DNA from: Verrucomicrobiota bacterium | GTDB lineage: Bacteria; Verrucomicrobiota; Verrucomicrobiia; Verrucomicrobiales; DEV007 | DNA: 64,000 nucleotides | Direction: 5' to 3' | Assembly (NCBI GenBank): GCA_963205275.1 | Contig: CAUJIH010000068.1 | Location: 3,466 to 67,465 of the forward strand | Shown here: in pieces, positions 2,263 to 25,988 of the stretch | How the letters are laid out: each line of letters starts with the position of its first letter | Numbering within the stretch: the first letter of the stretch is position 1 | The notes under the pieces: model-generated | The model's database searches: none | The model's input: the letters and a program-made list of their open reading frames with translations, nothing else | What the model was told of the DNA's origin: nothing | Position numbers and translations under genes: made by a program

Positions 2263-2637
2263 TCACCGTTCTGTAGAAAAGCGAAATTCCGTCGTCTGGC
2301 GATAAGTCTGTCCCGGCCTGAGTAGGCTGGACGGAAATTCTGGATGATTCGGCGTATCAGGATAGAACTGCGTCTCGAAGCAAGCGCCACCCCAGCGGGG
2401 AAAGGGATCACCTTTCAGAAAGTTCCCACTGTAGATCTGCACTCCCGGCAAAGTCGTCGCCACTTCGAGCACCCGACCCGATTCTGGATCACTCAGACGG
2501 GCAAAGGACTTCGGTAGTCGAGACTCTTTCGAAATGAGGAAGCAATGGTCATATCCACCGACGGGCGCTGATTCAAGCAGCGTGATGGGCGCACTTTGCA
2601 CGTCCATCAAGCCACGGAAGCCGAGCCTGAACTGCAA
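2263..2637 (-). pseudogene. galM: aldose 1-epimerase (GalM family), C-terminal fragment only (5'-truncated)
   Basis: GGYDHCFLI...LEVATTLPGVQIYSGNFL...GGACFETQFYPDTPNHPEF...LRPGQTY is the C-terminal third of mutarotases, which are normally ~300-380 aa. The listed start codon is TTG. The frame stays open upstream only to a TAA at 2764-2766, inside an AT-rich junction, so there is no room for the N-terminal ~200 aa. Confidence 0.65.
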
Positions 2638-3008
2638 GCAATCTACGATAAACTCCGACTTCCCTCTCTCCCCGGCGGAGTGAAAAAGATGAAGATTTAG
2701 CGAAAAGTAAGCGAAAGTAGTGCCAGAAGGAAATTTTCTGAGTCGTAATATACTGATTAATACTTATTTACATTTTTATCTGTTAAAGATGGGCTAGAAC
2801 GTCCAGCCGGAGGGTGTTGCAGAAGCAGTGACCAGCCCGCCTTCACCATTCGGATTTGGTCGGGTTAGAGGGGGCGTGGACGGAGATGGTTTTCCGCACG
2901 CTCAGCGCGTGGACCCGAGCTAAGGCATCCTCCCCCTATTCGTGTCGTCGCCTCCTCACGCCATTCGAAATACCTTCCTGGGCTAATGCCAGCCGGGCTT
3001 TACTCTGC

Positions 3009-3060
3009 CGACGAGGACGTCGACGGTCCCATGAATGGCTTCCACAGACAGGATTGTCTG
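3009..3060 (-). terminator. two short hairpins downstream of the wHTH gene (possible terminator or REP-like element)
   Basis: cgacg-agga-cgtcg at 3009-3022 and cagaca-ggat-tgtctg at 3045-3060, lying 11-62 nt past the TAG stop at 3071-3073. There is no U-tract, so support is weak. Confidence 0.25.
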
Positions 3061-3070
3061 CGCTACTCCG

Positions 3071-3652
3071 CTACCTGTTCTTCAACCACTCGCGACCTTT
3101 TTCAGAGATCAGCCAGATCCCGTGCTTGCTCTTTTCCATGAAACCCCAGTCGTTCACTAGGGTATTTCGTGCCCATTGAACCGAATTGCGCCAGCGGATG
3201 CTCTTGGAATCGGATTTGTGCGCTTCGTAATCCACCGGTTTGAGAAGCTTTTTCATTTTTTCACCCACCAGATCGATTACTTCTTTTGTCTTTCCACTCC
3301 CGCCAAGCTCCACCAATGCCTCCAGTAGGTAGGGAATGTAATCGTCTTGCGGGGTGATCTCACCCTTCTTGCGCTTGCCGAAAAACCGCTTGGTGACAAT
3401 CTGCTGCACCTCCGGGGTGGCGACATCACGCAGGTCTTCGATCTGCTCCCATTTGCCCATCAGCTCATTGACGCTGTCCTCGAAGTCTTGCAGGCGCTCG
3501 GCAAAATCGATCACCGCACGCGCCACATCAAAATCGCCATTCGTCATCGCTTTGGCACCGTCACTCTTGATGCGATCCCCTTCCTCAGCCACCGAGGCCT
3601 TGAGGAGTTCGAGAGAGGCGGAAATATCGTCGGGGAGTGTGGGAGTGGACAT
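3071..3652 (-). CDS. stand-alone Mrr_N-type winged-helix protein with N-terminal coiled-coil region
   Basis: 193 aa. The C-terminal YIPYLLEALVELGGSGKTKEVIDLV...SIRWRNSVQWARNTLVNDWGFMEKSKHGIWLISEKGREWL follows the pattern of the Mrr restriction-protein N-terminal wHTH (FIxPxLxxL...YKNRxxWAxxxLxxAGL...RGxWxLTxxG). The N-terminal ~90 aa are acidic and helical. It lies 106 bp downstream of the methyltransferase on the same strand. Confidence 0.6.
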   Translation of the reverse strand: MSTPTLPDDISASLELLKASVAEEGDRIKSDGAKAMTNGDFDVARAVIDFAERLQDFEDSVNELMGKWEQIEDLRDVATPEVQQIVTKRFFGKRKKGEITPQDDYIPYLLEALVELGGSGKTKEVIDLVGEKMKKLLKPVDYEAHKSDSKSIRWRNSVQWARNTLVNDWGFMEKSKHGIWLISEKGREWLKNR

Positions 3653-3758
3653 AGGAGAAAGAGATAGCCGGACGAGCAGGAAAAGGCAATGATGACTAGT
3701 CAGTCTAAGTCAGGCTGTGATATTTTTACGGTCCTCAGATTGATCGGATCGCATGACC

Positions 3759-6700
3759 TTACACAAATTCCCCGAGCCTGACGAGCTCGCGGTAGGCGTT
3801 TAGGGTTTGGGATTTGGTGGCGGTGTCGACTAGGGGGAAGGTGGTGAGGATGTGCTGGAATTCGGGGACGGTGAGATCGTAGAGGCGGGCGACGAGGGCG
3901 TCGATTTGGGCGCGGAGGGTGAGGCGCTCCTGAGGATCGGTAATGCCGTGCGTCTGGTGAGTGGCGGATGCGCCGAAGACCTCGGCCAGCAAGGCGTCGA
4001 AGTCCGCCGCCGTGCCGATGAGACGGGCGGCGCGCTCGATGAGGGGTCGGAAGGCGGTGTCGGTCGCCGTCAGGCGCGGGATGGGAAGCTGGTTCATGTA
4101 GAAGTAGTTCAAAGTAGTGGTCACTTTTTGACGAATTACCCAATCTATAACAAAACTATTGAGTAACGCGCAAAGAACGAGTTGCTCCTGGAGTCCTATC
4201 AAACAAGAACCACGCTCATAGGTCTTAACGGTCGGAATTTTGTTTCCATGAAACGTGGGTGGAATGATAGTGCTTATTAGTGTTCGAGTATCTGTATTAC
4301 GAGCAATATCACGAAAACCTAAGCGATAATCTTGATAATCTAGTTTTTGGCCAAGATCTCCAGTTCTACCGATAAGGCGAGCACGTCCCTCTTCCTCTTC
4401 AACCCAATATCGTGGTTCGGCGTAGCCGTGGCGGAATTGCCAGATCATCTTGCCCTCGTAGAGAGGGAGTCGCCCCGTGCCCGGAGTGGTGTGGAAAAGG
4501 TTGCTGTCATTCGTCATGTGAAATTCAGCCGTAAACCCGATGTTCCAAGCATCCGGCACGGTTTCACCGAGGAGAGGATGGCGGAGCAGCTTTTCTGCAA
4601 TGGCGAGGTCTTCCGAGCTGTTGAACTCCATCATGGAGCCGGAGCCGGGGGAAAGGCGACGGATGAGCCTAGGCGAGAGAGTGAGTGATTCCGGGTTAGG
4701 GAACGTAGCCAAGTCTCTGACATCCTGTCGCATAAAGGCCACAGGGAAGCTCTCCGTCGTCCCCGCAGTCTCGAAGGTGAGGACGACGAATTTGAAGCGA
4801 GAGTCCACGCCTTCGAAAATCTTGCGTCGATTTTCAAAACCGAAGAGGCCTTCGATTTTGGTTTTTTCGTAGAGCATATTGCGCAGTTGGGTCGCGCCGA
4901 GGTCGGTGTAGATGCCGGAGGGAATGACAATGCCGCAGCGTGCCCCCTCGGCCAGCAGGTGGGTGCATTGTTCGAGAAAGAGTTTGTAGAGATTGATGTC
5001 AGATCCCACCTTGCGTCCATTCACTTGCCCGATCTGATTCTCATATTGAGGGGAGCTGCGGAAGTAGGCGCTTTGGTAGGGAAAGGAGGAGAGATATTCC
5101 AGCCATGCTTGGCGGATTTCGGGATCATCGACGAGGAGCGATTTTTTCTCCTTCTCAAAGTCCTCAATGGGCATTTTCTTCTTAGTGACCTGGCCGCTGT
5201 AGTGCTCAAAGAACTCCTTGGCGTTGGGTTTGAGGATGTCCCAAGGCGGATTGGTGATGATGAGATCGAAGCCACCGCGATTTTCCATCACTTCATCGAA
5301 CTCATAAGCCCAGTGAAAGGGAGTGAGCGCTCGGATGTCCTCGATTCTCAGGCCACGCTTGTGGCACTTACCCTCTTTCTTCTTCGACTCATCCCAAGTG
5401 GCCTGCTCAAACTGGACGCCTAGGGCATGAAACTCATCGAGCAAGAGCTTGTCGAGAATCTTGCGTGCATCGGCTTTTAGCTCCTCAATGCTGCTCTTGA
5501 GTCCGGCGAGGTCTTGGAAGAGCGAGGTGGATTTTTTGTAGTTGTCGATGAGTTGGTTTTTCCGACGCAACAGTTCCTTGTACTGGACCACTTGTTGGCC
5601 GGCTACGAAGGCGGCGGCTTTTTCCTTATGCGTTATTGCGGAAGAAAGCTCGGTTTCAAAGCCGAGGGCTTCCTGAGTTCTCAGACCGAGCGAGGGCTGG
5701 GCCGCGATTCCCTTGTCACCGGTACGACGCGGTGCCTTGGCATCGAAGCGGGCGGCATCGACCCGGAGCAGGCCGATGAGTGAGTTACCGGCGAGGAGGT
5801 TGAACTCGATATTGGGCAGGGGTTCGAGCTGGTTTCGCTCCTCGGCGGATGCGACCAGTGAGAGAAAGAGGCGGAGTTTCGCGATCTCCCCGGCCTCCTC
5901 CATGATGTCCACACCGTAGAGGTTTTCGGTGACGATTTTCTTTTTCAACCAGTAGGCAATCGGTGCCTTGTGCTGTTTTTGCTCATATTCAATCCACTGC
6001 AGGATGGGTCTGTAGTTGAGTGCTTGGCAACGGCCGATGAGAGCGGTGTAGAGATTGAGCAGGGTCTTTTGGGCAGCCACGAGAAAGGCTCCCGAGCCAC
6101 AGGCGGGATCGAGGATGGAGAGAGAAGGGAGGATGTTCTGGAGGAGCGTGGCGGCGGTGGGGCCGTCCACATGGAGGAGCAGGTCTTCGAGGTCGTGGTA
6201 GTAACGCGGTTCGGGGAAGGATTTGGGTTCGCTTTTGTGGAGTTTTTGCTTGGCGGGATAGGCCGCGTTGACACGATCGAGCACCAAGGGGTGTACGGTG
6301 CGCTCGCAGAGGTAATCAGTGACTTCCGGACGAGTGTAGTAGGCACCGAATTCTTTTTGGTTGATGTATTTTTCGAAGATATAGCCGAGCACATCCGGAT
6401 TGATTTCGCGGTCATCACCACCGGGGGTGTCGTTCAGTGACCACGAGTAGCGGTCAAAGAGGGCAAAGAGACTGTCGAAGGCGGCATCGGGGATATGGAT
6501 TCTCCGATAGGCGTGACTATGCAGAGAGTCGCCCTCGATGCGGACTTCAATGCCATGCGGTAGGAAGAGGCCGCCGTTGAGGTACGGGATATCGCCCAGT
6601 GGGATGCTGCCGATGGGGCTGCGTCTTTCCTCGGGCTTAGCGAAGCCCTCGAAGAAGAGATCGCGGAGAAAATGGGAGTAGAAGCGATCCTCTCCCTGCT

Positions 6701-7463
6701 CCCGTGAGGCAGCGAGCTTGTCGACGAGGTAGTGGAGGTTTCCGGTTTTGGCCTTTCTCACGTCGATAAAACCTTTTTTCTGGAGAAACCAGATGAACAT
6801 GAGCCGATTGAGGAGCACGGAGGCATACCAGCGGCGCTCGTCGGGATCGAAAACGCCGCCTATGGAATCGAGCAAGTGCTGATGTTCGAGCTGGAAGTCG
6901 TCGAAAAAGGTCTTGGTGACGACCTCGATATCGAGCCCAGTGCGCACCCGCTCGGCGGCCTCGGTGATGGGGAGATTGCCGTCTTCATCCAGCTCGGAGA
7001 GATCGATGACAAGGGCGGAGAGCTTGGATAGGAAGAGATCGCCCGGCTGGCCTTTGAGGTAATGGTGGCGGCGGGGGCGGTTTTTGGTACTACGATGCGG
7101 GTGAGCGGGATCGGTCTCGCGCTTCATCCACAGCCACAGGGAGCGGCTGCGCTGCTCGGGCACTTGGGCATCGAGAAAAATAAGGATATTCTCGGCGGAG
7201 TGAGGAGTCATTTGCCGCCACAGTGCCTGCTGAGTAGAGGAGCTGGGAAATGGGGTATCGGGATCGTCTGGCGTAATTTCAAACACTCGGTACCCTGCAA
7301 GCTGGGAGATTTCCTGTGCCTGCCAACTGCTTGCTTCGTGGGTGAGGTGAATCGGTTTCTCGGAATCGGGATAGTTCCAGCCGAGGTCCTCGATGAAGAG
7401 ATCGGCAAACTGAAAGGCTTGGAGATGGCGGCGAGCGGAGCGCGGGTTGAGCTTTGCTGTCAT
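3759..7463 (-). CDS. large gamma-class N6-adenine DNA methyltransferase, Eco57I/MmeI/PglX-like (MTase core + C-terminal putative target-recognition region)
   Basis: 1234 aa. Motifs: FGAYYTRPEV (aa 372-381); motif I LDPACGSGAFL (aa 451-461, nt 6081-6113); NLLAGNSLIG (aa 555-564); a helical insert; motif IV NPPW (aa 738-741, nt 5241-5252). About 490 further residues follow, containing RDIARNTDTRTLI and LLNSFVIDW, which are typical of type IIG/IIL-family C-terminal regions. Confidence 0.85.
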   Translation of the reverse strand: MTAKLNPRSARRHLQAFQFADLFIEDLGWNYPDSEKPIHLTHEASSWQAQEISQLAGYRVFEITPDDPDTPFPSSSTQQALWRQMTPHSAENILIFLDAQVPEQRSRSLWLWMKRETDPAHPHRSTKNRPRRHHYLKGQPGDLFLSKLSALVIDLSELDEDGNLPITEAAERVRTGLDIEVVTKTFFDDFQLEHQHLLDSIGGVFDPDERRWYASVLLNRLMFIWFLQKKGFIDVRKAKTGNLHYLVDKLAASREQGEDRFYSHFLRDLFFEGFAKPEERRSPIGSIPLGDIPYLNGGLFLPHGIEVRIEGDSLHSHAYRRIHIPDAAFDSLFALFDRYSWSLNDTPGGDDREINPDVLGYIFEKYINQKEFGAYYTRPEVTDYLCERTVHPLVLDRVNAAYPAKQKLHKSEPKSFPEPRYYHDLEDLLLHVDGPTAATLLQNILPSLSILDPACGSGAFLVAAQKTLLNLYTALIGRCQALNYRPILQWIEYEQKQHKAPIAYWLKKKIVTENLYGVDIMEEAGEIAKLRLFLSLVASAEERNQLEPLPNIEFNLLAGNSLIGLLRVDAARFDAKAPRRTGDKGIAAQPSLGLRTQEALGFETELSSAITHKEKAAAFVAGQQVVQYKELLRRKNQLIDNYKKSTSLFQDLAGLKSSIEELKADARKILDKLLLDEFHALGVQFEQATWDESKKKEGKCHKRGLRIEDIRALTPFHWAYEFDEVMENRGGFDLIITNPPWDILKPNAKEFFEHYSGQVTKKKMPIEDFEKEKKSLLVDDPEIRQAWLEYLSSFPYQSAYFRSSPQYENQIGQVNGRKVGSDINLYKLFLEQCTHLLAEGARCGIVIPSGIYTDLGATQLRNMLYEKTKIEGLFGFENRRKIFEGVDSRFKFVVLTFETAGTTESFPVAFMRQDVRDLATFPNPESLTLSPRLIRRLSPGSGSMMEFNSSEDLAIAEKLLRHPLLGETVPDAWNIGFTAEFHMTNDSNLFHTTPGTGRLPLYEGKMIWQFRHGYAEPRYWVEEEEGRARLIGRTGDLGQKLDYQDYRLGFRDIARNTDTRTLISTIIPPTFHGNKIPTVKTYERGSCLIGLQEQLVLCALLNSFVIDWVIRQKVTTTLNYFYMNQLPIPRLTATDTAFRPLIERAARLIGTAADFDALLAEVFGASATHQTHGITDPQERLTLRAQIDALVARLYDLTVPEFQHILTTFPLVDTATKSQTLNAYRELVRLGEFV

Positions 7464-7630
7464 GGGAAAGGTGGGCGGGGAAGTCTGCTAACTCTATGCG
7501 ATGAAGCGCGAGTGCTGGTTCGGTCAGGATTATGAGGGATGGCTATTTTCGTCGATGATCTAGGAAACGCCGGAGAGTTTGAGATTTTCATCCACAGATT
7601 TCGCGGATGAACCTAGATTTCTTGATTCTG

Positions 7631-7659
7631 ATCTGCGGAAATCTACGAAATCTGCGGAT
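7631..7659. repeat. short tandem repeat (3 units of 9-10 bp) in the helicase-MTase spacer
   Basis: atctgcggaa / atctacgaa / atctgcggat read directly at 7631-7659. A related agatttcgcgga lies at 7596-7607. Confidence 0.5.
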
Positions 7660-7821
7660 AGCTAATAAAATAATAAGATTAGTCCGTTCCTTACAGTTTT
7701 TACAACCCTTCTTGCCCCAACGGGGCAAAATACGCTGACTCAGCCAAGGCCTTGAGATCAAGCAAGACACGCACCGTGAAGCCGCCATGTTTGTTTGTAT
7801 GCCGACGAGACATCCGCGCTC

Positions 7822-10800
7822 CTAGGCGAGGCCGATGGAGCAGAGAATTTGTGGGTTGGTCAGCGGTTCTTCGTGAAGATTTGCCACAACGAGGCGGTCA
7901 TCGCGATGGAGAGTGGTGACAAGATCAGCCAAGTCATCATCGGAGATTTTCGCACGAAGTTGGCGGTTGAGCTTGTCGACGGCTTCAGTGGTGAGCGGGT
8001 GGTCGTAAATGGCTTGGATGGCGGCGAGGATTTGGTCGCTGAGAAAGAGGTCGTCTTTGCGCTGAAGCATGAATTGATTGAGCCGCTCGTAGCTGCGGTA
8101 GCGGGCACCACGGGGAGGACCAAGCCGACCCGCTTTGGTGTCGCCTCTGCGCTCGTTTTGGATGATTTTGACTGCCATTTCCACTAATTCATGGTGATCT
8201 TCACGCCGCGGTAAGGGCGTCTCTTCCGGTCCGCATTTGGCCCTACGGAAGATGCGGACGAGGGATTCGGTGACGATCTTGCCATCGGCATCGAGCCACA
8301 GCAGGGAATCTCCCCCGCGTGGAGTGCGGATGTAGGTAAGCACGCCGGGAGGGGAGAGTTCAGGATGATCGAGATCGAGGATGTGTTTCTTGGTGGCGTA
8401 CACCACGTTGGCCAATTGCTCGACTTTTTTGCGCAATGCGGGGTCATCCTTGGTCTCCTGAGACCAGACTTCGTAGGCTTCGGAAGTGAGGTCTACTTCG
8501 TCATCGTCTGGCTCATCAAGGATCCCAGATTTTTCATCGTAGAGGTTTTGTAATGACTCGATATCGACTGGCTGTTGATCCTCAAAGAAGGCCTCATCGG
8601 AGCCGACGACCTCTTCATTTTCGCGTAGGCGATGGATGATTCGCTGGCGGAGATTGATGACATTTTCCACGCCTTCGGCGGGCAGAAAGGAATAGCAAAA
8701 AACGGTATCGCGGCGCTGGCCGATGCGGTCGATGCGCCCCGCGCGCTGGATCAGCCGGATGATGGCCCATGGCAGATCGTAGTTGATTACGCGCCCGGCA
8801 TCTTGCAAGTTTTGTCCTTCGGAGAGAACATCGGTGGCAATGAGGATACGGGTTTGTTCGGCGGGAGGGAATTGATCGAGCTTGCCGTTTGATTCCGGGG
8901 AAAACCGCCATGCTTGGCGAGCGGGATCGACAGAGTCTCCGGTAACACAATCCACATGCTCCAAACCGGCGGCTTGAAGAGCACGCAGGAGGTAATCACC
9001 GGTATCGGCGAATTGGGTGAAAATGAGAAATTTCTCTTTGCTCTCGGTGCTTTGAAGAAGCTGAATCAGGGCTTGGAGCTTAAAGTCATCGCTGGGTGCG
9101 ATTTCACCGGTAGCGGTGAGCAAATCGCGCAAAGCGGTGGCGTCACGACGTAGTTCTTGTTTGAAGCTGCGCTTGAAGACATCTGTGCGCAGCCATTTGT
9201 AGCGCTTTCTGTGTGCCGATCCGGAAAGAGTCTGATACAGACGCTTCGCCTCTGCTTGATAATCTGCCTCTGTCCACGAACCAAGTGGCGGTAGGGAGCT
9301 TTGGGTTTCTTCTTCCAGATTCAACTCCCCTTCGCCTTCCCCGTCCGTTTCTACGTCGTCAGCATCGAAAAGGCGGGTATCGAGCAAAGCGGCATCGAGC
9401 TGGCCAATGGGAAGCGGCAGGGAATTTTCTAGGGCATAAATTTCTAATTCGTTTCGCAGAATGTGTCGGTGCAAGGAAAGTAGAAAGGCATTGGCAGAGC
9501 TTTCGAGCCGCTTGAAGAGGTTCGTGCGACAGAAACCGCGCATGCGATGGCCGGCGCGGGTGAGGTCGTCGATGATTTTCTCATCGGTCGCGCTGAGATC
9601 GCTCGGCAGAACGTCCTTTGTGTATCGGCTACGACCGTAGCGCGGCAATCGGAGTTCATTGATGATGCTCACGACTTCATCGCGCATCAGGCGGGCACAG
9701 CGATCCTGGGGATCGTCTGGATTGGCACGATACTTGACCGATTTCGGCTGGCGGACGGGGAAGTAGAGTCGCTCACCCTGCGGCAGTGTCAGAAAAGAAC
9801 GCTCCAAGGTAGAATCGTATTCCGCATAGTTATGCACGATGAAGGAACGGGTGCGGCGCACCATATAGAGACGCATGACGTCACGCCAATCGTCGGCATA
9901 CGGGCTGTGCTCAAAAGCGGCCAGTGAAGAGGTCGGGGTATTGGGGTGGCTAAGAGAAAACTTGGCTTCACCGATTTCTTGAAGCAGCGTTTCCGGGCGG
10001 ATACCGATGTCGCTTTGCTCGTTTAGGAATAGGCGGAGCTGGGCACCGAGGTCGAGGTAGGTTTTGTTATAAGGCGTGGCAGAAAGTAGGATGACCTTGC
10101 AATCATTGTGGGCGATATAATCGCGAAGGGCTTGATAAATTCTTCCCTCTTTGTTGCGGAAATTATGGGATTCATCGATGATGACGAGTCGATACCGCGG
10201 TAGAGTCGGCAATTTTTTCTGGGCTTGGCTCTGAGAAAGCACCTTGGGAGCTCGAAGTCCGAATTCATGGACATATTCCTCCCACATCGGGATAAGGTTT
10301 TTTGGACAGAGGATGAGGGTTTCTAACGAGAGGTCGTCTGCCATCACTCGAGCGATGGCCGAAGCAATGCGGGTTTTCCCTAATCCGACGACATCGCCGA
10401 CGAGCACTCCGCCGCGTTTGTTGAGATGGCGGCAGGCGATCTGAACGGCTTTTTCCTGAAAAGGGAGCAGCTTTTCCCGAATATCGTGGGGAATGCCAAA
10501 CTCCTTGATACCGTCGCGGGCGTCTTGCGACAGATGCCAGGCCATTTTTAGGTAGAGATGATAGGGACTGACCAGTTCCTCTCCCGCCCAACTTTCCTCA
10601 ATGACCTCGATGAGCTCTTGGCTGATATCGAGGCAGCGCGTGTCCTCCCAGCGATCGAGAAACCACTGGTTCAGCTTTTTGGCAGCATCTTGATCGGGAA
10701 CGTCGATGTTCAGTTCTCCTTGATTTTTGAGACCCGAAAAAGTGAGATTGGAAGAGCCGAGAAAGGCGAGAAGCGGAGTGAAATGATCGTCGCGATGAGC

Positions 10801-11259
10801 AAGGTAGAGCTTGGCGTGAAGCGAGTGTCGAAGAAAGAGCTTCACCTGAAGGCGACCTTCCCGAAGCTGTTTTACCAGACGCCGCAGACCTTTCTCATCG
10901 GCATTGGTTGGAAAACCCAGCGTGAGCTGCTTGCGGAATTCTTGAGCAGCAGCCTTGCACAAGGAGCGCATCGTCTTTTGGTCGGGAGGACGTTCAGGGC
11001 TGTTCTCAAGCCAAGAAGTAATCAAATGCAGATCCGGTACTCGCTGCATCCCTACGAGCAAGCGACAGGGGGCTGGAGCCTCAGGTTCTGTAACCATTGG
11101 CCAGCTTTCGACGACAGCATCGATGGATCGCCAACCGCGTAAATTGAAGTAGCCGACACAAAAATCACCTCTATGAGCAACCTTTAGAGCATCTTTAAGG
11201 CCGTTTTTATCGCTGTTCTCGAGGAATGATGTCTCGATATTGTCAAATACGTGGGGCAT
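7822..11259 (-). CDS. PLD (HKD) nuclease-like domain fused to SNF2-family SF2 helicase/translocase, with uncharacterised C-terminal extension
   Basis: 1145 aa. N-terminal HKD motif: SLHAKLYLAHRDD...FLGSSNLTFSG (aa ~146-176, nt ~10730-10825). SF2 motif I VGLGKT (aa 291-296), motif II VIIDESHNF (DESH aa 362-365), motif III LLSATPYNK, motif V ILIATDVLSEGQNLQD, motif VI QRAGRIDRIGQ. The last ~250 aa have no motif I recognise. Confidence 0.85.
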   Translation of the reverse strand: MPHVFDNIETSFLENSDKNGLKDALKVAHRGDFCVGYFNLRGWRSIDAVVESWPMVTEPEAPAPCRLLVGMQRVPDLHLITSWLENSPERPPDQKTMRSLCKAAAQEFRKQLTLGFPTNADEKGLRRLVKQLREGRLQVKLFLRHSLHAKLYLAHRDDHFTPLLAFLGSSNLTFSGLKNQGELNIDVPDQDAAKKLNQWFLDRWEDTRCLDISQELIEVIEESWAGEELVSPYHLYLKMAWHLSQDARDGIKEFGIPHDIREKLLPFQEKAVQIACRHLNKRGGVLVGDVVGLGKTRIASAIARVMADDLSLETLILCPKNLIPMWEEYVHEFGLRAPKVLSQSQAQKKLPTLPRYRLVIIDESHNFRNKEGRIYQALRDYIAHNDCKVILLSATPYNKTYLDLGAQLRLFLNEQSDIGIRPETLLQEIGEAKFSLSHPNTPTSSLAAFEHSPYADDWRDVMRLYMVRRTRSFIVHNYAEYDSTLERSFLTLPQGERLYFPVRQPKSVKYRANPDDPQDRCARLMRDEVVSIINELRLPRYGRSRYTKDVLPSDLSATDEKIIDDLTRAGHRMRGFCRTNLFKRLESSANAFLLSLHRHILRNELEIYALENSLPLPIGQLDAALLDTRLFDADDVETDGEGEGELNLEEETQSSLPPLGSWTEADYQAEAKRLYQTLSGSAHRKRYKWLRTDVFKRSFKQELRRDATALRDLLTATGEIAPSDDFKLQALIQLLQSTESKEKFLIFTQFADTGDYLLRALQAAGLEHVDCVTGDSVDPARQAWRFSPESNGKLDQFPPAEQTRILIATDVLSEGQNLQDAGRVINYDLPWAIIRLIQRAGRIDRIGQRRDTVFCYSFLPAEGVENVINLRQRIIHRLRENEEVVGSDEAFFEDQQPVDIESLQNLYDEKSGILDEPDDDEVDLTSEAYEVWSQETKDDPALRKKVEQLANVVYATKKHILDLDHPELSPPGVLTYIRTPRGGDSLLWLDADGKIVTESLVRIFRRAKCGPEETPLPRREDHHELVEMAVKIIQNERRGDTKAGRLGPPRGARYRSYERLNQFMLQRKDDLFLSDQILAAIQAIYDHPLTTEAVDKLNRQLRAKISDDDLADLVTTLHRDDRLVVANLHEEPLTNPQILCSIGLA

Positions 11260-11838
11260 AGGAACAGGGGAATGCTGGTAGATAAGTCGATAGGCGGCAA
11301 GAATGAAAGAGGTATCGGGTCACAAGTTATACGATGATAAGAATCTGACCTATGGCCTTTTCCGATCGTGAGAATTGAGTCGCCTCATGCTCTCCTGCTC
11401 ACGATACACGAGCGAGACGCTCCTGCTCTCTTCATTGTTGGCGGCAGTCTCCCCCTTGTGTCACTTCTTCGCAAGGGAAGCGAGTTCGAACGATGGAGTG
11501 AATGGATTGACGATGCGTAGCTCTTCTATTTTCTGGCCATATTGCAGATCTCCAGAGAGTAGGGTGTCGCATTCGCTTGGCCGTGCTATGCGCGGTGCTG
11601 GCCCCTGAACTGAAAGCTCCGGCGACTCTGCTATTTAACTTCACACAGTCCACTTGTACTGGGCTCTTTGCGAAACCAGCCTTATCATTCACTACGCTGA
11701 TTTTCCGCCATTCCGATCATCACATTTCAGTTGATTCGTCCATGCCGATACCGGGCACACGTCCCTCGCCGAGTCCTTCGTTGCAAACAATCTTCGGGAG
11801 CTGACCTCGGAGTGTGGGAGCGGCTCGACATCCTTTCC

Positions 11839-12402
11839 TCATTCGAGTATCTGCACATCCCGTCCCGGTGCGCCATCACTCGCATTTGATATGCCCTCTT
11901 CTGTCTTCGAAGGGGGCGTGTAATCCATTGTTACCTGATTCCCATTGCGAATCGTCCCGTCCACGATGTCTGCAGTGAGAAATGAACCTTTCCTCGCGGG
12001 ACTCACTCTGGCATGTCCCACAGCCTGCCCGCTCTCTCCGTATACAGTCAAAATCGTCCCAGGTTCGACCTGAATCAGGCGACTTGATCGGATCAGAATG
12101 AAGTCACCCTCCGCACTCACATGCTGCACTAGGCCCACCGGGAGCGTCGTTGAACGGGCCGTTTGGGGTGAAGAATTCGCAGACACATCCGATGACAAGG
12201 TCGTCGAACTATCCCGAGACGGCAATACTCGGCACCCCGCCAATCCACTCACGAGCAAAGCGATCAGAAGGTAGTCGCGAAAATCCAATACGAAACGCAC
12301 GTCCCATTCTCGCGCAGATTTCCGTCCACTGGCAAGCCCGAGATCATTAGCGCCCGGATCACGACTCTGCACGGCTTTCCTCATCGCGTTGTTCTGACGC
12401 AT
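11839..12402 (-). CDS. hypothetical lipoprotein (last gene of the respiratory cluster)
   Basis: Lipobox-like LLVSGLAGC follows a hydrophobic stretch. A GTG at 12300 would give a clean signal peptide (RFVLDFRDYLLIALLVSGLAGC) and remove the overlap with the rhodanese gene. Function unknown. Confidence 0.45.
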   Translation of the reverse strand: MRQNNAMRKAVQSRDPGANDLGLASGRKSAREWDVRFVLDFRDYLLIALLVSGLAGCRVLPSRDSSTTLSSDVSANSSPQTARSTTLPVGLVQHVSAEGDFILIRSSRLIQVEPGTILTVYGESGQAVGHARVSPARKGSFLTADIVDGTIRNGNQVTMDYTPPSKTEEGISNASDGAPGRDVQILE

Positions 12403-25160: not shown

Positions 25161-25988
25161 TTATTGAACGGGAGTGACAGGTTTTTCCGGAGTCGAAACA
25201 GCAGCCTTCGCTGGCGCTGGTGCCGCCGGTTTCGCGGCAGCAGGGGCGGGCGCTGGAGTTGCTGGCGCTGACGCCTTCTCGACAGCCTTCGCTGGTGCTG
25301 CCGGTTTCGCGGCAGCAGGGGCGGGCGCTGGAGTTGCTGGCGCTGGCACCTTCTCGACAGCCTTCGCTGGTGCTGCCGGTTTCGCGGCAGCGGGAGCGGG
25401 CGCTGGAGTTGCTGGCGTTGATGCCTTCTCGACAGGCTTCGCTGGCGCTGGTGCCGCCGGTTTCGCGGCAGCAGGGGCGGGCGCTGGAGTTGCTGGCGCT
25501 GATGCCTTCTCGACAGCCTTCGCTGGTGCTGGCGCTGGTGCCGCTGGCTTCGTGGCAGCAGGAGCGGGCGCTGGAGTTGCTGGCGCTGATGCCTTCTCGA
25601 CAGCCTTCGCTGGTGCTGGCGCTGGTGCTGCCGGTTTCGCGACAGCAGGAGCGGGCGCAGCGGATTGCTTCAGAAACGTGGGAGAACCAGGGACAATGAT
25701 CTCACTCGGCCCGGCATTCCCAGCCTTCTGTGGCATCTCACGAATCGCCGCATCCAATTTTAGAGGATCTAGGACTTTCGCTTGTTCCTCCTGCGTTTCC
25801 TTCAGATTCTCTTGGCGTAGCTTGATTTCATCTATCGTGAACTCTCCGCGAAACGCCCGGCTTTGAGGCGTCTTCGAATCGAGACTACCCGAGATGATGA
25901 GGGCGAAGAAGCCGAAAGCGAAAAAAATCGCCAAGGCCCAGAGGATTGATCGGGTATTCGCGCAGCAGTTGTCGCCGGAGTCGTTCAT
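25161..25988 (-). CDS. membrane-anchored protein with Pro/Ala-rich tandem repeats
   Basis: N-terminal TM (ILWALAIFFAFGFFALIISGSL), a short charged helical region, then 5 copies of KPAAPAPA(PA)KAVEKASAPATPAPAPAA(A/T). It sits between actF and the ccoN-like gene with 37- and 24-bp spacers. Confidence 0.6.
   Translation of the reverse strand: MNDSGDNCCANTRSILWALAIFFAFGFFALIISGSLDSKTPQSRAFRGEFTIDEIKLRQENLKETQEEQAKVLDPLKLDAAIREMPQKAGNAGPSEIIVPGSPTFLKQSAAPAPAVAKPAAPAPAPAKAVEKASAPATPAPAPAATKPAAPAPAPAKAVEKASAPATPAPAPAAAKPAAPAPAKPVEKASTPATPAPAPAAAKPAAPAKAVEKVPAPATPAPAPAAAKPAAPAKAVEKASAPATPAPAPAAAKPAAPAPAKAAVSTPEKPVTPVQ
25200..25660. repeat. imperfect in-frame tandem repeat, 5 units with period 75/75/81/87 bp
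   Basis: The core ccttctcgaca(g)(c/g)cttcgctgg recurs with starts at 25274, 25349, 25424, 25505 and 25592. Confidence 0.85.

Follow-up and report, generated by a model that had tools for sequence, protein, structure and literature searches.

A phospholipase D-Swi2/Snf2 motor protein and a PglX/Type IIG-like adenine methyltransferase as the conserved core of a putative restriction-modification-like module

Introduction

Type ISP restriction enzymes such as LlaGI and LlaBIII combine a nuclease, an ATP-driven double-strand DNA translocase, a gamma-class methyltransferase (MTase) and a specificity domain; they recognise an asymmetric site, methylate one strand and cleave when two motors meet. Type IIG/IIL enzymes (MmeI, DrdV, Eco57I, Cj0031) carry Eco57I and MmeI_Mtase domains, a helical-domain motif and a C-terminal specificity region, and in MmeI-type enzymes the N-terminal domain is a nuclease. 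SauUSI (Type IV) and the R and N proteins of CglI/NgoAVII contain a single-HKD phospholipase D (PLD) nuclease and an SF2 ATPase, and in these systems the PLD domain works as a dimer. Multi-gene systems related to bacteriophage exclusion (BREX) or to the restriction-modification-associated defence island system (DISARM) contain comparable parts. Class 1 DISARM comprises DrmA, DrmB, the PLD protein DrmC, the SNF2 helicase DrmD and the MTase DrmMI, and Hma, a type-2 BREX-related (BR) system, is defined by a DUF499 ATPase, an N6-MTase, an HKD-Swi2/Snf2 helicase and DUF3780 (Rakesh & Krishnan 2026, PMC12839542). Pairs of an SNF2 helicase and a PglX-like MTase are found within BREX type 3, class 1 DISARM, ARMADA II and Hma/BR (PMC12839542; PMC12458937). 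Here we analyse a 64,000-nucleotide stretch of contig CAUJIH010000068.1 from a Verrucomicrobiota bacterium (hereafter the window), in which three co-oriented genes encode a PLD nuclease-Swi2/Snf2 motor protein (gene 1, referred to as the helicase), a large N6-adenine (m6A) DNA MTase (gene 2) and a small Mrr_N protein (gene 3). The evidence makes it probable that the first two genes form the two-protein core of a horizontally acquired, ATP-dependent defence module resembling restriction-modification (R-M) systems.

Results and Discussion

The helicase and methyltransferase genes are neighbours across many phyla

ORF (open reading frame) calling returned three minus-strand, co-oriented ORFs exactly where an earlier reading of the sequence (the original prediction) had placed them (Table 1). 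No other credible gene was found between 3.0 and 11.3 kb, the remaining ORFs being overlapping and out of frame, or short ORFs in spacers, with no family match. The motifs quoted for the helicase and MTase were likewise present at the residues given and are invariant across homologue alignments.

The helicase belongs to a family of at least 7999 clusters at E<=1e-10. Scanning GTDB, with one genome per species and two family-specific peptides, gave at least 598 confirmed loci, the best 80 of which, each from a different GTDB species, were surveyed by calling ORFs in the neighbourhood and searching these with the window proteins. These 80 loci span Verrucomicrobiota, Chloroflexota, Acidobacteriota, Cyanobacteria, Bacteroidota, Desulfobacterota, Proteobacteria, Deinococcota, Patescibacteria and others. 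An MTase homologue followed the helicase in 69/80 loci and preceded it in 2/80; in 7/80 the contig ended before any MTase could appear, and in 2/80 (L081 and L082) an MTase was present and no intact helicase ORF was recovered. The two genes are adjacent in 71/80 loci, the other nine being uninformative, and there was no clear counter-example. The gap between helicase and MTase in 69 other loci had a median of 7 bp and was no more than 150 bp in 52/69, and a reciprocal look-up starting from two MTase homologues found a helicase 2 bp upstream. Near-obligate synteny, tight spacing and occurrence in many phyla support the earlier proposal that the helicase and MTase constitute a conserved functional unit.

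Pairwise identities were compared for 57 helicase/MTase pairs. Helicase identity correlated with that of the MTase N-terminal 400 residues (r=0.54, Mantel p=0.001), to a lesser degree with that of the MTase catalytic core (r=0.32) and hardly at all with that of the specificity region (r=0.06). Common ancestry adds to these correlations; even so, the gradient accords with co-evolution between the motor and an N-terminal docking region, combined with a freely swapped specificity module.

A Swi2/Snf2 motor carrying a single HKD motif

The predicted fusion of an HKD nuclease motif to an SNF2/SF2 motor is borne out by conservation of the catalytic residues and by Pfam, which places PLDc_2 at aa 92-204 (38 bits) and RE_NgoFVII, also a PLD family, at aa 125-200, together with SNF2-rel_dom, ResIII and Helicase_C (63 bits). 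The nuclease domain contains H148/K150 and GSSNLT (168-173), and the motor contains GLGKT (292-296), DESH (362-365), SAT (393-395) and QRAGRIDRIGQ (838-848). Residues H148, K150, G168, S169, S170, N171, E182 and N184 are conserved in 57/57 homologues, and the motor columns GLGKT 292-296, DES(H) 362-365, AT 394-395 and QRAGRxDRIGQ 838-848 are likewise invariant in homologue alignments (57/57). The best PADLOC model for this protein is PDLC01075 'HKD+Snf2' (159 bits), an unnamed profile.

Sequence searches of the Protein Data Bank (PDB) matched the motor to Sulfolobus SNF2/Rad54 and to RapA. An AlphaFold2 (AF2) model built from 15 sequences, with a pLDDT (predicted local distance difference test) score of 61.8, was used only to confirm a Snf2/RapA-like fold, and Foldseek searches with this low-confidence model returned SRCAP, RapA, SWR1, CSB and Rad54. 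Since the ATPase is of the Swi2/Snf2 type by both sequence and fold, it is expected to be a double-strand translocase rather than a strand-separating helicase. PLD nucleases such as Nuc, BfiI and SauUSI have one active site built from two HKD motifs. Only one HKD motif is present in each helicase polypeptide, and two chains would therefore have to cooperate.

The methyltransferase has a conserved N-terminal region and no recognisable nuclease site

The product of gene 2 had been described as a gamma-class m6A MTase with a target-recognition region of approximately 490 aa. The gamma-class core and its motifs stand, namely motif I DPACGSGAF at 452-460 (DPxxGSGAF being invariant), GNSL at 559-562 and motif IV NPPW at 738-741, as do Pfam matches to Eco57I (83 bits), MmeI_Mtase (38 bits) and N6_Mtase; what the description overlooked is a conserved stretch of approximately 440 aa at the N-terminus, consisting of an alpha/beta and a helical domain. 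The top PADLOC models are REase_MTase_IIG, with PDLC03628 scoring 327 bits on aa 4-398, and the NCBIfam model TIGR02987 (Alw26I family) matches aa 720-1226 below its cut-off. An AF2 model of aa 1-1200 (pLDDT 70.7, the C-terminal region being less confident) has four parts: the alpha/beta N-terminal domain, the helical domain, the catalytic domain and the C-terminal region. Its best Foldseek matches are the BREX proteins BrxX/PglX (9ewz, E=2e-12 over approximately 1100 residues; 8q56; 8c45), with more distant matches to BsaXI, DrdV, MmeI, CamA and Type ISP enzymes including LlaBIII. Sequence searches of the PDB with the single MTase sequence gave nothing, and a profile search gave a marginal match to MmeI.

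A nuclease site within the MTase itself was considered and rejected: the alpha/beta fold is present, but conserved catalytic residues are not. Among 57 family members no acidic or Lys residue is conserved at >=85% within aa 1-170, where the conserved residues are all hydrophobic, Gly, Pro or Trp, which leaves no PD-(D/E)XK triad, and E91 is replaced by Ser in slr6050, the Synechocystis family member discussed below. With no conserved nuclease residues in the MTase, the fully conserved single-HKD PLD domain of the motor is the likely nuclease.

Every partner MTase retains the N-terminal region, including those with a different C-terminus, and these first ~447 aa are the most system-specific part of the protein and a candidate helicase-docking region. 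Partner MTases fall into two groups, similar either over their full length or over only the first ~750-900 residues, which points to exchange of the specificity region. No programmed-inversion repeats indicative of a shufflon were found for this region.

Table 1. Features of the locus and its immediate surroundings, in window coordinates
Feature	Position	Strand	Description
Gene 1, helicase	7822..11259	-	1145 aa; ORF call, Pfam, PADLOC, Foldseek
PLD (HKD) nuclease domain	10570..11259	-	~aa 1-230; HxK...GSSNLT...E, aa 148-182, at ~10714-10818
Swi2/Snf2 ATPase motor	8560..10482	-	~aa 260-900; Pfam, invariant columns, PDB sequence matches, Foldseek
Conserved C-terminal region of motor protein	7825..8559	-	aa 901-1145; many invariant residues, no Pfam match, low model confidence
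Helicase-MTase spacer	7464..7821	-	358 bp
Gene 2, MTase	3759..7463	-	1234 aa; PglX/Type IIG-like N6-adenine DNA methyltransferase without nuclease active site
MTase N-terminal alpha/beta domain and helical domain	6123..7463	-	aa 1-165 and aa 166-447; model secondary structure
Gamma-class m6A catalytic domain	5184..6122	-	aa 448-760; invariant columns, Pfam
C-terminal target-recognition region	3762..5183	-	aa 761-1234; exchangeable among family members
Gene 3, Mrr_N protein	3071..3652	-	193 aa; clade-specific accessory
Non-coding junction between island and galM fragment	2638..3070	.	~430 bp, partly A+T-rich
galM (aldose 1-epimerase) C-terminal fragment	2263..2637	-	Flank, marks one island edge

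A copy of the module on a Synechocystis plasmid

Plasmid pSYSX of Synechocystis PCC 6803 (34696-56139) carries a helicase-related protein, SGL_RS01585, that is 47.5% identical to the window helicase. This gene is followed by a nested VapC toxin-antitoxin pair, a gene for a 1100-aa DNA methyltransferase and a DUF2513 gene. All of these lie in a small defence island, which continues with a ubiquitin-like conjugation cluster (ThiF/E1, E2/UBC, multiubiquitin, DUF6527) and a helix-turn-helix (HTH) + ImmA/IrrE pair. From the matching length, plasmid and family we infer that the 1100-aa MTase is slr6050, which is 37% identical to the window MTase over the N-terminal region and to which the PADLOC model PDLC03628 essentially corresponds (2662 bits, full length). 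The protein has been described as M.Ssp6803IV, to which the asymmetric motif GAm6AGGC was tentatively assigned (Hagemann et al. 2018, PMC6105098). In the same study an slr6050 knockout failed to segregate and the gene was concluded to be essential; the helicase is not mentioned (PMC6105098). Failure to segregate would be expected if loss of methylation unleashed the adjacent nuclease-motor, an explanation that is ours and not that of the original authors.

Distribution, mobility and nested cargo

The helicase-MTase pair was found on 46 plasmids, among them plasmids of cyanobacteria, Rhodococcus and haloarchaea, and no full-length helicase relative was found in phage genomes. In Desulfuromonas sp. 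TF (KI421428.1, 3594-12311) the module together with HEC-01 splits a cobalamin-biosynthesis operon. HEC-01 is a candidate system first observed embedded in Hma operons. The Desulfuromonas locus (L099) represents a four-gene variant, also seen at L098, L005, L012, L021, L032 and L060, in which two further genes, one for an AAA_15/AAA_21 ATPase and one for a DUF4276 protein, come after the helicase and MTase genes with their stop and start codons overlapping; in PADLOC these two are labelled HEC-01A/HEC-01B. In Oleiharenicola lentus the module adjoins Thoeris-like TIR/SIR2 genes. Defence or toxin-antitoxin cargo located within or directly after the operon in relatives comprises HEC-01, VapC/PIN, DUF3800, DUF1016 and GmrSD, and comparable nesting is known for Hma operons (PMC11232893).

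Comparison with named systems

No named multi-gene system could be assigned to the locus: scores for curated NCBIfam equivalog models, including DrmD, PglX and DpdE, were all far below cut-off, and the best PADLOC model for the helicase is unnamed. The claim of novelty holds in that no name was found, and full-text literature searches gave neither a name nor a functional study for the pair or the trio, nor a source for the PADLOC label 'C3a139', but it has to be qualified because REBASE-derived PADLOC models already label the MTase family Type IIG and because the pairing has had a brief mention before, in which a Type II R-M coding sequence of the Cj0031 kind lies beside a PLD+SNF helicase coding sequence (Milman et al. 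2023, PMC9881135). The predicted absence of canonical partners was confirmed for the locus and the window ORFs scanned, where PglZ, BrxC, DrmA, DrmB, DUF499, HsdS and HsdR were not found; the scan left out eight ORFs of at least 250 aa, four of which correspond to COX1, COX2, COX3 and COX15-CtaA according to precomputed Pfam labels at the corresponding same-strain locus (L001). As none of the defining extra genes was found in the locus or the scanned window ORFs and the scores are far below the cut-offs, the locus is not a member of DISARM, BREX, Hma or ARMADA II.

The resemblance to Hma/type-2 BR extends to an N-terminal HKD domain on a Swi2/Snf2 core, a RapA-like fold, pairing with a large N6-adenine MTase and an operon that is a hotspot for nested defence genes including HEC-01. 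Unlike in Hma, the core consists of two genes rather than three or four, and the HmaA model covers only the C-terminal helicase lobe (69 bits). As to the DUF499 AAA+ ATPase of Hma (HmaC), the island contains no ATPase gene of this kind, and none recurs in related loci apart from the HEC-01-type AAA_15, which belongs to a separate nested candidate system. Stand-alone DUF3780 is present in 98% of type-2 BR loci (PMC12839542); it was not found in the window and is not among the top 25 Pfam families of 144 neighbouring ORFs in relatives. Class 1 DISARM resembles the locus in combining a large m6A MTase with an SNF2 helicase and a PLD nuclease, but here PLD and SNF2 are fused in one chain, and neither DrmA (a YprA-like helicase) nor DrmB (DUF1998) was found in the locus, in the scanned window ORFs or among the recurring neighbours in the 80 related loci. 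Among named PADLOC models DrmD (104 bits) and DrmMI (87 bits) come next, with partial matches that rank beneath those of 'HKD+Snf2' and Type IIG, and the NCBIfam model DISARM_DrmD reaches 130.6 bits, its cut-off being 610. With BREX PglX/BrxX the MTase shares a non-nucleolytic architecture of N-terminal domain, helical domain, gamma-MTase and specificity region, although identity is only 13-14%, BREX_1_MTaseX (PglX) scores 42.5 bits against a cut-off of 500, and no PglZ, BrxC/PglY, BrxA, BrxB or BrxL is present in the locus or scanned window ORFs.

Likeness to Type ISP enzymes, as originally proposed, remains the best functional analogy, the predicted set of activities being the same, whilst structurally the MTase is nearest to BREX PglX; the Type ISP structure 4xqk is a weak Foldseek match to the MTase-specificity part (E=1.6e-5). 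For hemimethylation of an asymmetric site and cleavage on collision, the one hint is indirect, namely the tentative link of the homologue slr6050 to GAm6AGGC. A Type ISP enzyme has its activities in one polypeptide, with an Mrr-like PD-(D/E)XK nuclease and a motor resembling Type I HsdR, whereas here they are divided between two chains, the nuclease being of the PLD/HKD type and the motor of the Swi2/Snf2 type. The domains shared with Type IIG/IIL enzymes are those listed in the Introduction, the differences being the N-terminal domain without a conserved nuclease site and the obligate helicase-nuclease partner. SauUSI and the CglI/NgoAVII proteins share the single-HKD nuclease with an SF2 ATPase, consistent with the RE_NgoFVII match; SauUSI, however, is modification-dependent and has no MTase partner, and CglI/NgoAVII have a C5-MTase and leave recognition to a separate protein with a B3 domain, whereas recognition here is presumably by the m6A MTase.

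Proposed mechanism and alternative explanations

A split, PLD-armed, translocase-coupled R-M-like system, as originally predicted, is the best reading of the locus, since the MTase has no nuclease site of its own. In such a system the 1234-aa MTase would read a short asymmetric motif through its exchangeable C-terminal region and methylate adenine, thereby marking the host as self. The MTase, itself without a nuclease, would be coupled through its conserved N-terminal region to the 1145-aa partner, in which a predicted double-strand DNA translocase of the Swi2/Snf2 type is joined to a PLD nuclease domain with one HKD motif. Unmethylated foreign DNA would license the motor, and ATP-driven translocation would be followed by cutting of the DNA, for which two motor subunits would have to meet, either by dimerising or when two translocating complexes collide. 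The formation of a complex, the specificity of methylation, translocation, cleavage that depends on a dimer and the function given to gene 3 are all predicted here from comparative analysis.

It is highly improbable that the MTase is an ordinary single-chain Type IIG/IIL enzyme lying beside an unrelated helicase-nuclease. The REase_MTase_IIG models are indeed the top PADLOC matches, one of them being essentially slr6050, and the layout (N-terminal, helical, MTase, specificity) resembles that of MmeI and DrdV, but the position of the MmeI nuclease holds no conserved catalytic residues in the 57 members, adjacency to the helicase is near-obligate, tight and seen from both directions, and the N-terminal region co-varies with the helicase. 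BREX- or DISARM-like exclusion, in which phage replication would be blocked without cutting, the SNF2 motor remodelling proteins on unmethylated DNA or stripping them off and the PLD domain playing only a small part or one other than cleavage, is unlikely. In its favour, PglX is the closest structural relative of the MTase, the motor is similar to RapA, a protein that acts on complexes of protein and DNA, and SNF2 + PglX-like MTase pairs lie inside BREX type 3, class 1 DISARM, ARMADA II and Hma/BR (PMC12839542; PMC12458937). Invariance of the HKD catalytic residues in all 57 homologues argues for cutting instead, as does the requirement for the nuclease fused to the Snf2 helicase in defence by the related Hma (PMC11232893), and a source of other activities is missing, no PglZ, BrxC, BrxL or DrmAB having been found in the locus or the scanned window ORFs.

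We give very little credence to decay as the origin of the locus, whereby a larger system (class 1 DISARM, for example, or Hma/BREX-related type 2) would have lost DrmA/DrmB or the DUF499 ATPase. The next-best PADLOC matches to DrmD and DrmMI would suit such an origin, and type-2 BREX-related helicases carry an N-terminal HKD on a Swi2/Snf2 core (PMC12839542); set against this, the compact pair is intact in at least 598 species with its catalytic residues conserved, no DrmA/B, DUF499 or DUF3780 occurs among the neighbours surveyed, NCBIfam scores lie far below the DrmD, PglX and DpdE cut-offs and the HmaA match is confined to the C-terminal lobe. An epigenetic or DNA-repair role, with an orphan regulatory methylase and a repair translocase in place of defence, would accommodate the apparent essentiality of slr6050 in Synechocystis (PMC6105098) and the position of the window island among housekeeping genes. 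It is nevertheless scarcely likely, given a patchy and mobile distribution over phyla and plasmids, insertion into unrelated operons, occurrence in defence islands with nested defence cargo and the swapping of the specificity domain that is typical of R-M systems.

Several observations weigh against the R-M-like reading that we favour. The model of the helicase is poor (pLDDT 61.8, and below 50 in the HKD region), so PLD geometry and dimerisation are without structural support. The literature shows no experiment on this locus or on any helicase of the family, and to our knowledge DNA cleavage has not been demonstrated for BREX, the home of PglX, which is the best structural relative of the MTase. 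Co-variation of helicase and MTase stems partly from the shared ancestry of adjacent genes, and the atypical 358-bp spacer in the window could mean that the two are transcribed separately. The Mrr_N protein is absent from most family members and so cannot be essential to the core mechanism, and a 39%-identical Mrr_N relative stands alone. With regard to Synechocystis, the 'essential' nature of slr6050 could have another cause, no paper was found that mentions slr6047, the presumed old locus tag of the pSYSX helicase, and elimination was the basis on which the motif was attributed to slr6050, whose recombinant protein could not be produced (PMC6105098).

In the module the pairing known from BREX type 3, class 1 DISARM, Hma and ARMADA II is reduced to two genes, with nuclease and motor in one chain, and it would be the simplest setting for a study of how methylation status is converted into anti-phage action. 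It is abundant, being represented in at least 598 species and by thousands of protein clusters, and is at present mislabelled as a Type IIG enzyme and a 'helicase-related protein'. Its presence on pSYSX places it in a genetically tractable organism, Synechocystis PCC 6803, where its activity would explain the apparent essentiality of slr6050, and the exchangeable specificity region could yield new m6A specificities. Although we consider it less likely than not, the family may represent a distinct and very widespread minimal class of ATP-dependent R-M system, a split Type ISP-like and PLD-armed one, in which the nuclease-less PglX-like MTase would read the sequence and license the motor, two meeting motors would complete the HKD site and interchangeable DNA-binding third subunits (Mrr_N here, DprA-like or AlbA_2 proteins elsewhere) would gate or tune the activity. 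On this view the module could also be the ancestral helicase-methylase unit behind DISARM class 1, BREX type 3, Hma and ARMADA II.

The third gene is variable

The helical N-terminal domain (aa 1-100) of the gene 3 product is of a rare kind; a basic linker follows, and then an Mrr_N winged helix, the last as predicted and matched by Pfam at aa 105-191 with 54 bits against a cut-off of 29.5 bits. Pfam finds Mrr_N only and no Mrr_cat PD-(D/E)XK domain, and the protein does not qualify as an Mrr Type IV enzyme. The family comprises 116 clusters, nearly all of ~190-210 aa. The N-terminal helical domain has 89 representatives among 1.84 billion proteins, and longer relatives show no further informative domains. 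Gene 3 or a close relative lies at the 3' end of the helicase-MTase cluster in six loci, among them L007, L008, L049, L090 and L091, even with intervening cargo. In two of these, L008 (16594-18068) and L090 (9273-10579), a gene for an ImmA/IrrE-type M78 peptidase precedes the Mrr_N gene, its end overlapping the start of the latter by 4 bp, an arrangement that resembles repressor/protease regulator pairs. In Oleiharenicola lentus, which has the pair without an Mrr_N protein, an HTH_3 + M78 pair is located directly upstream of the helicase (L005, 8489-9842). The M78 genes near these modules suggest protease-controlled regulation.

The view that all three genes form a general unit did not survive the survey, since the Mrr_N protein accompanies the pair only in a Verrucomicrobia/Kiritimatiellia clade and elsewhere its place is taken by a DprA-like protein, an AlbA_2 protein or no third gene. 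Downstream sequence extended for 1 kb or more in 49 loci, of which 16-23 encode a DprA-like protein (PF02481) with weak resemblance to PsyrA and ShosA; an SLFN_AlbA_2 protein is encoded in approximately seven loci. Variation of the third position between small DNA-binding proteins indicates that the core consists of two genes. Gene 3 is most likely a DNA-binding regulator of the operon; a less likely role is that of a reader of DNA modification state. In some members the SLFN_AlbA_2 domain is fused to the MTase C-terminus (L009, 11397-15383; P0265, P0280, P0297, P0301 and others), and elsewhere it is part of a separate gene of ~500 aa with HATPase_c_4, so that this accessory occurs either fused or free.

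The island and its genomic setting

The three genes form an isolated island of ~8.6 kb, the rest of the window being housekeeping chromosome of verrucomicrobial type that encodes cytochrome oxidase, alternative complex III, carB, serA, aspS and an AcrB-type pump; the nearest named homologues are from Verrucomicrobia, with Oleiharenicola lentus at 65%. The island was probably acquired horizontally. Its G/C skew is opposite in sign to that of same-strand neighbouring genes. The galM remnant at one edge retains the C-terminal third of the gene (Pfam Aldose_epim profile positions 209-299 of 299; NCBIfam galM 231-336 of 336), and the far flank is a cox/rhodanese operon. The N-terminal part of galM was not found among ORF translations of 11260-11840, on the far side of the island. 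Independent short-read assemblies of the same strain break at ~2601 and ~3131, suggesting strain variation or a repeat at the island edge. No tRNA, flanking direct or inverted repeats or integrase were found at the island boundaries, and an empty-site search from the flanking 698-aa gene returned only short contigs ending at the junction.

The helicase-MTase spacer is unusually long for the family and contains an A+T-rich stretch. It includes an imperfect inverted repeat, CCGCAGATTTCG (7592-7603) and CCACAGATTTCG (7646-7657), with a third partial copy, TCCGCAGAT (7631-7639), and this region (7592-7657) could be an operator or internal promoter region. The inverted repeat was rejected as a conserved operator, as neither it nor the spacer is conserved in L010, the closest relative with a long spacer. 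The spacer gave no Rfam match, and promoter- and terminator-like sites were no commoner than in shuffled sequence.

Two further features of the window lie outside the island. The 698-aa protein encoded at 75-2171 on the minus strand matches the NCBIfam 'fused MFS/spermidine synthase' subfamily (63.5 bits), and has a weak PADLOC match to the MADS methyltransferase mad2 that is probably at the level of fold. A tandem array at 25198-25660 consists of units of ~75-87 nt in 5-8 copies that are 73-100% identical; it lies within a minus-strand ORF (25161-25988, 275 aa) that has no PADLOC match, is located inside a respiratory gene cluster and probably contains a repetitive low-complexity protein segment.

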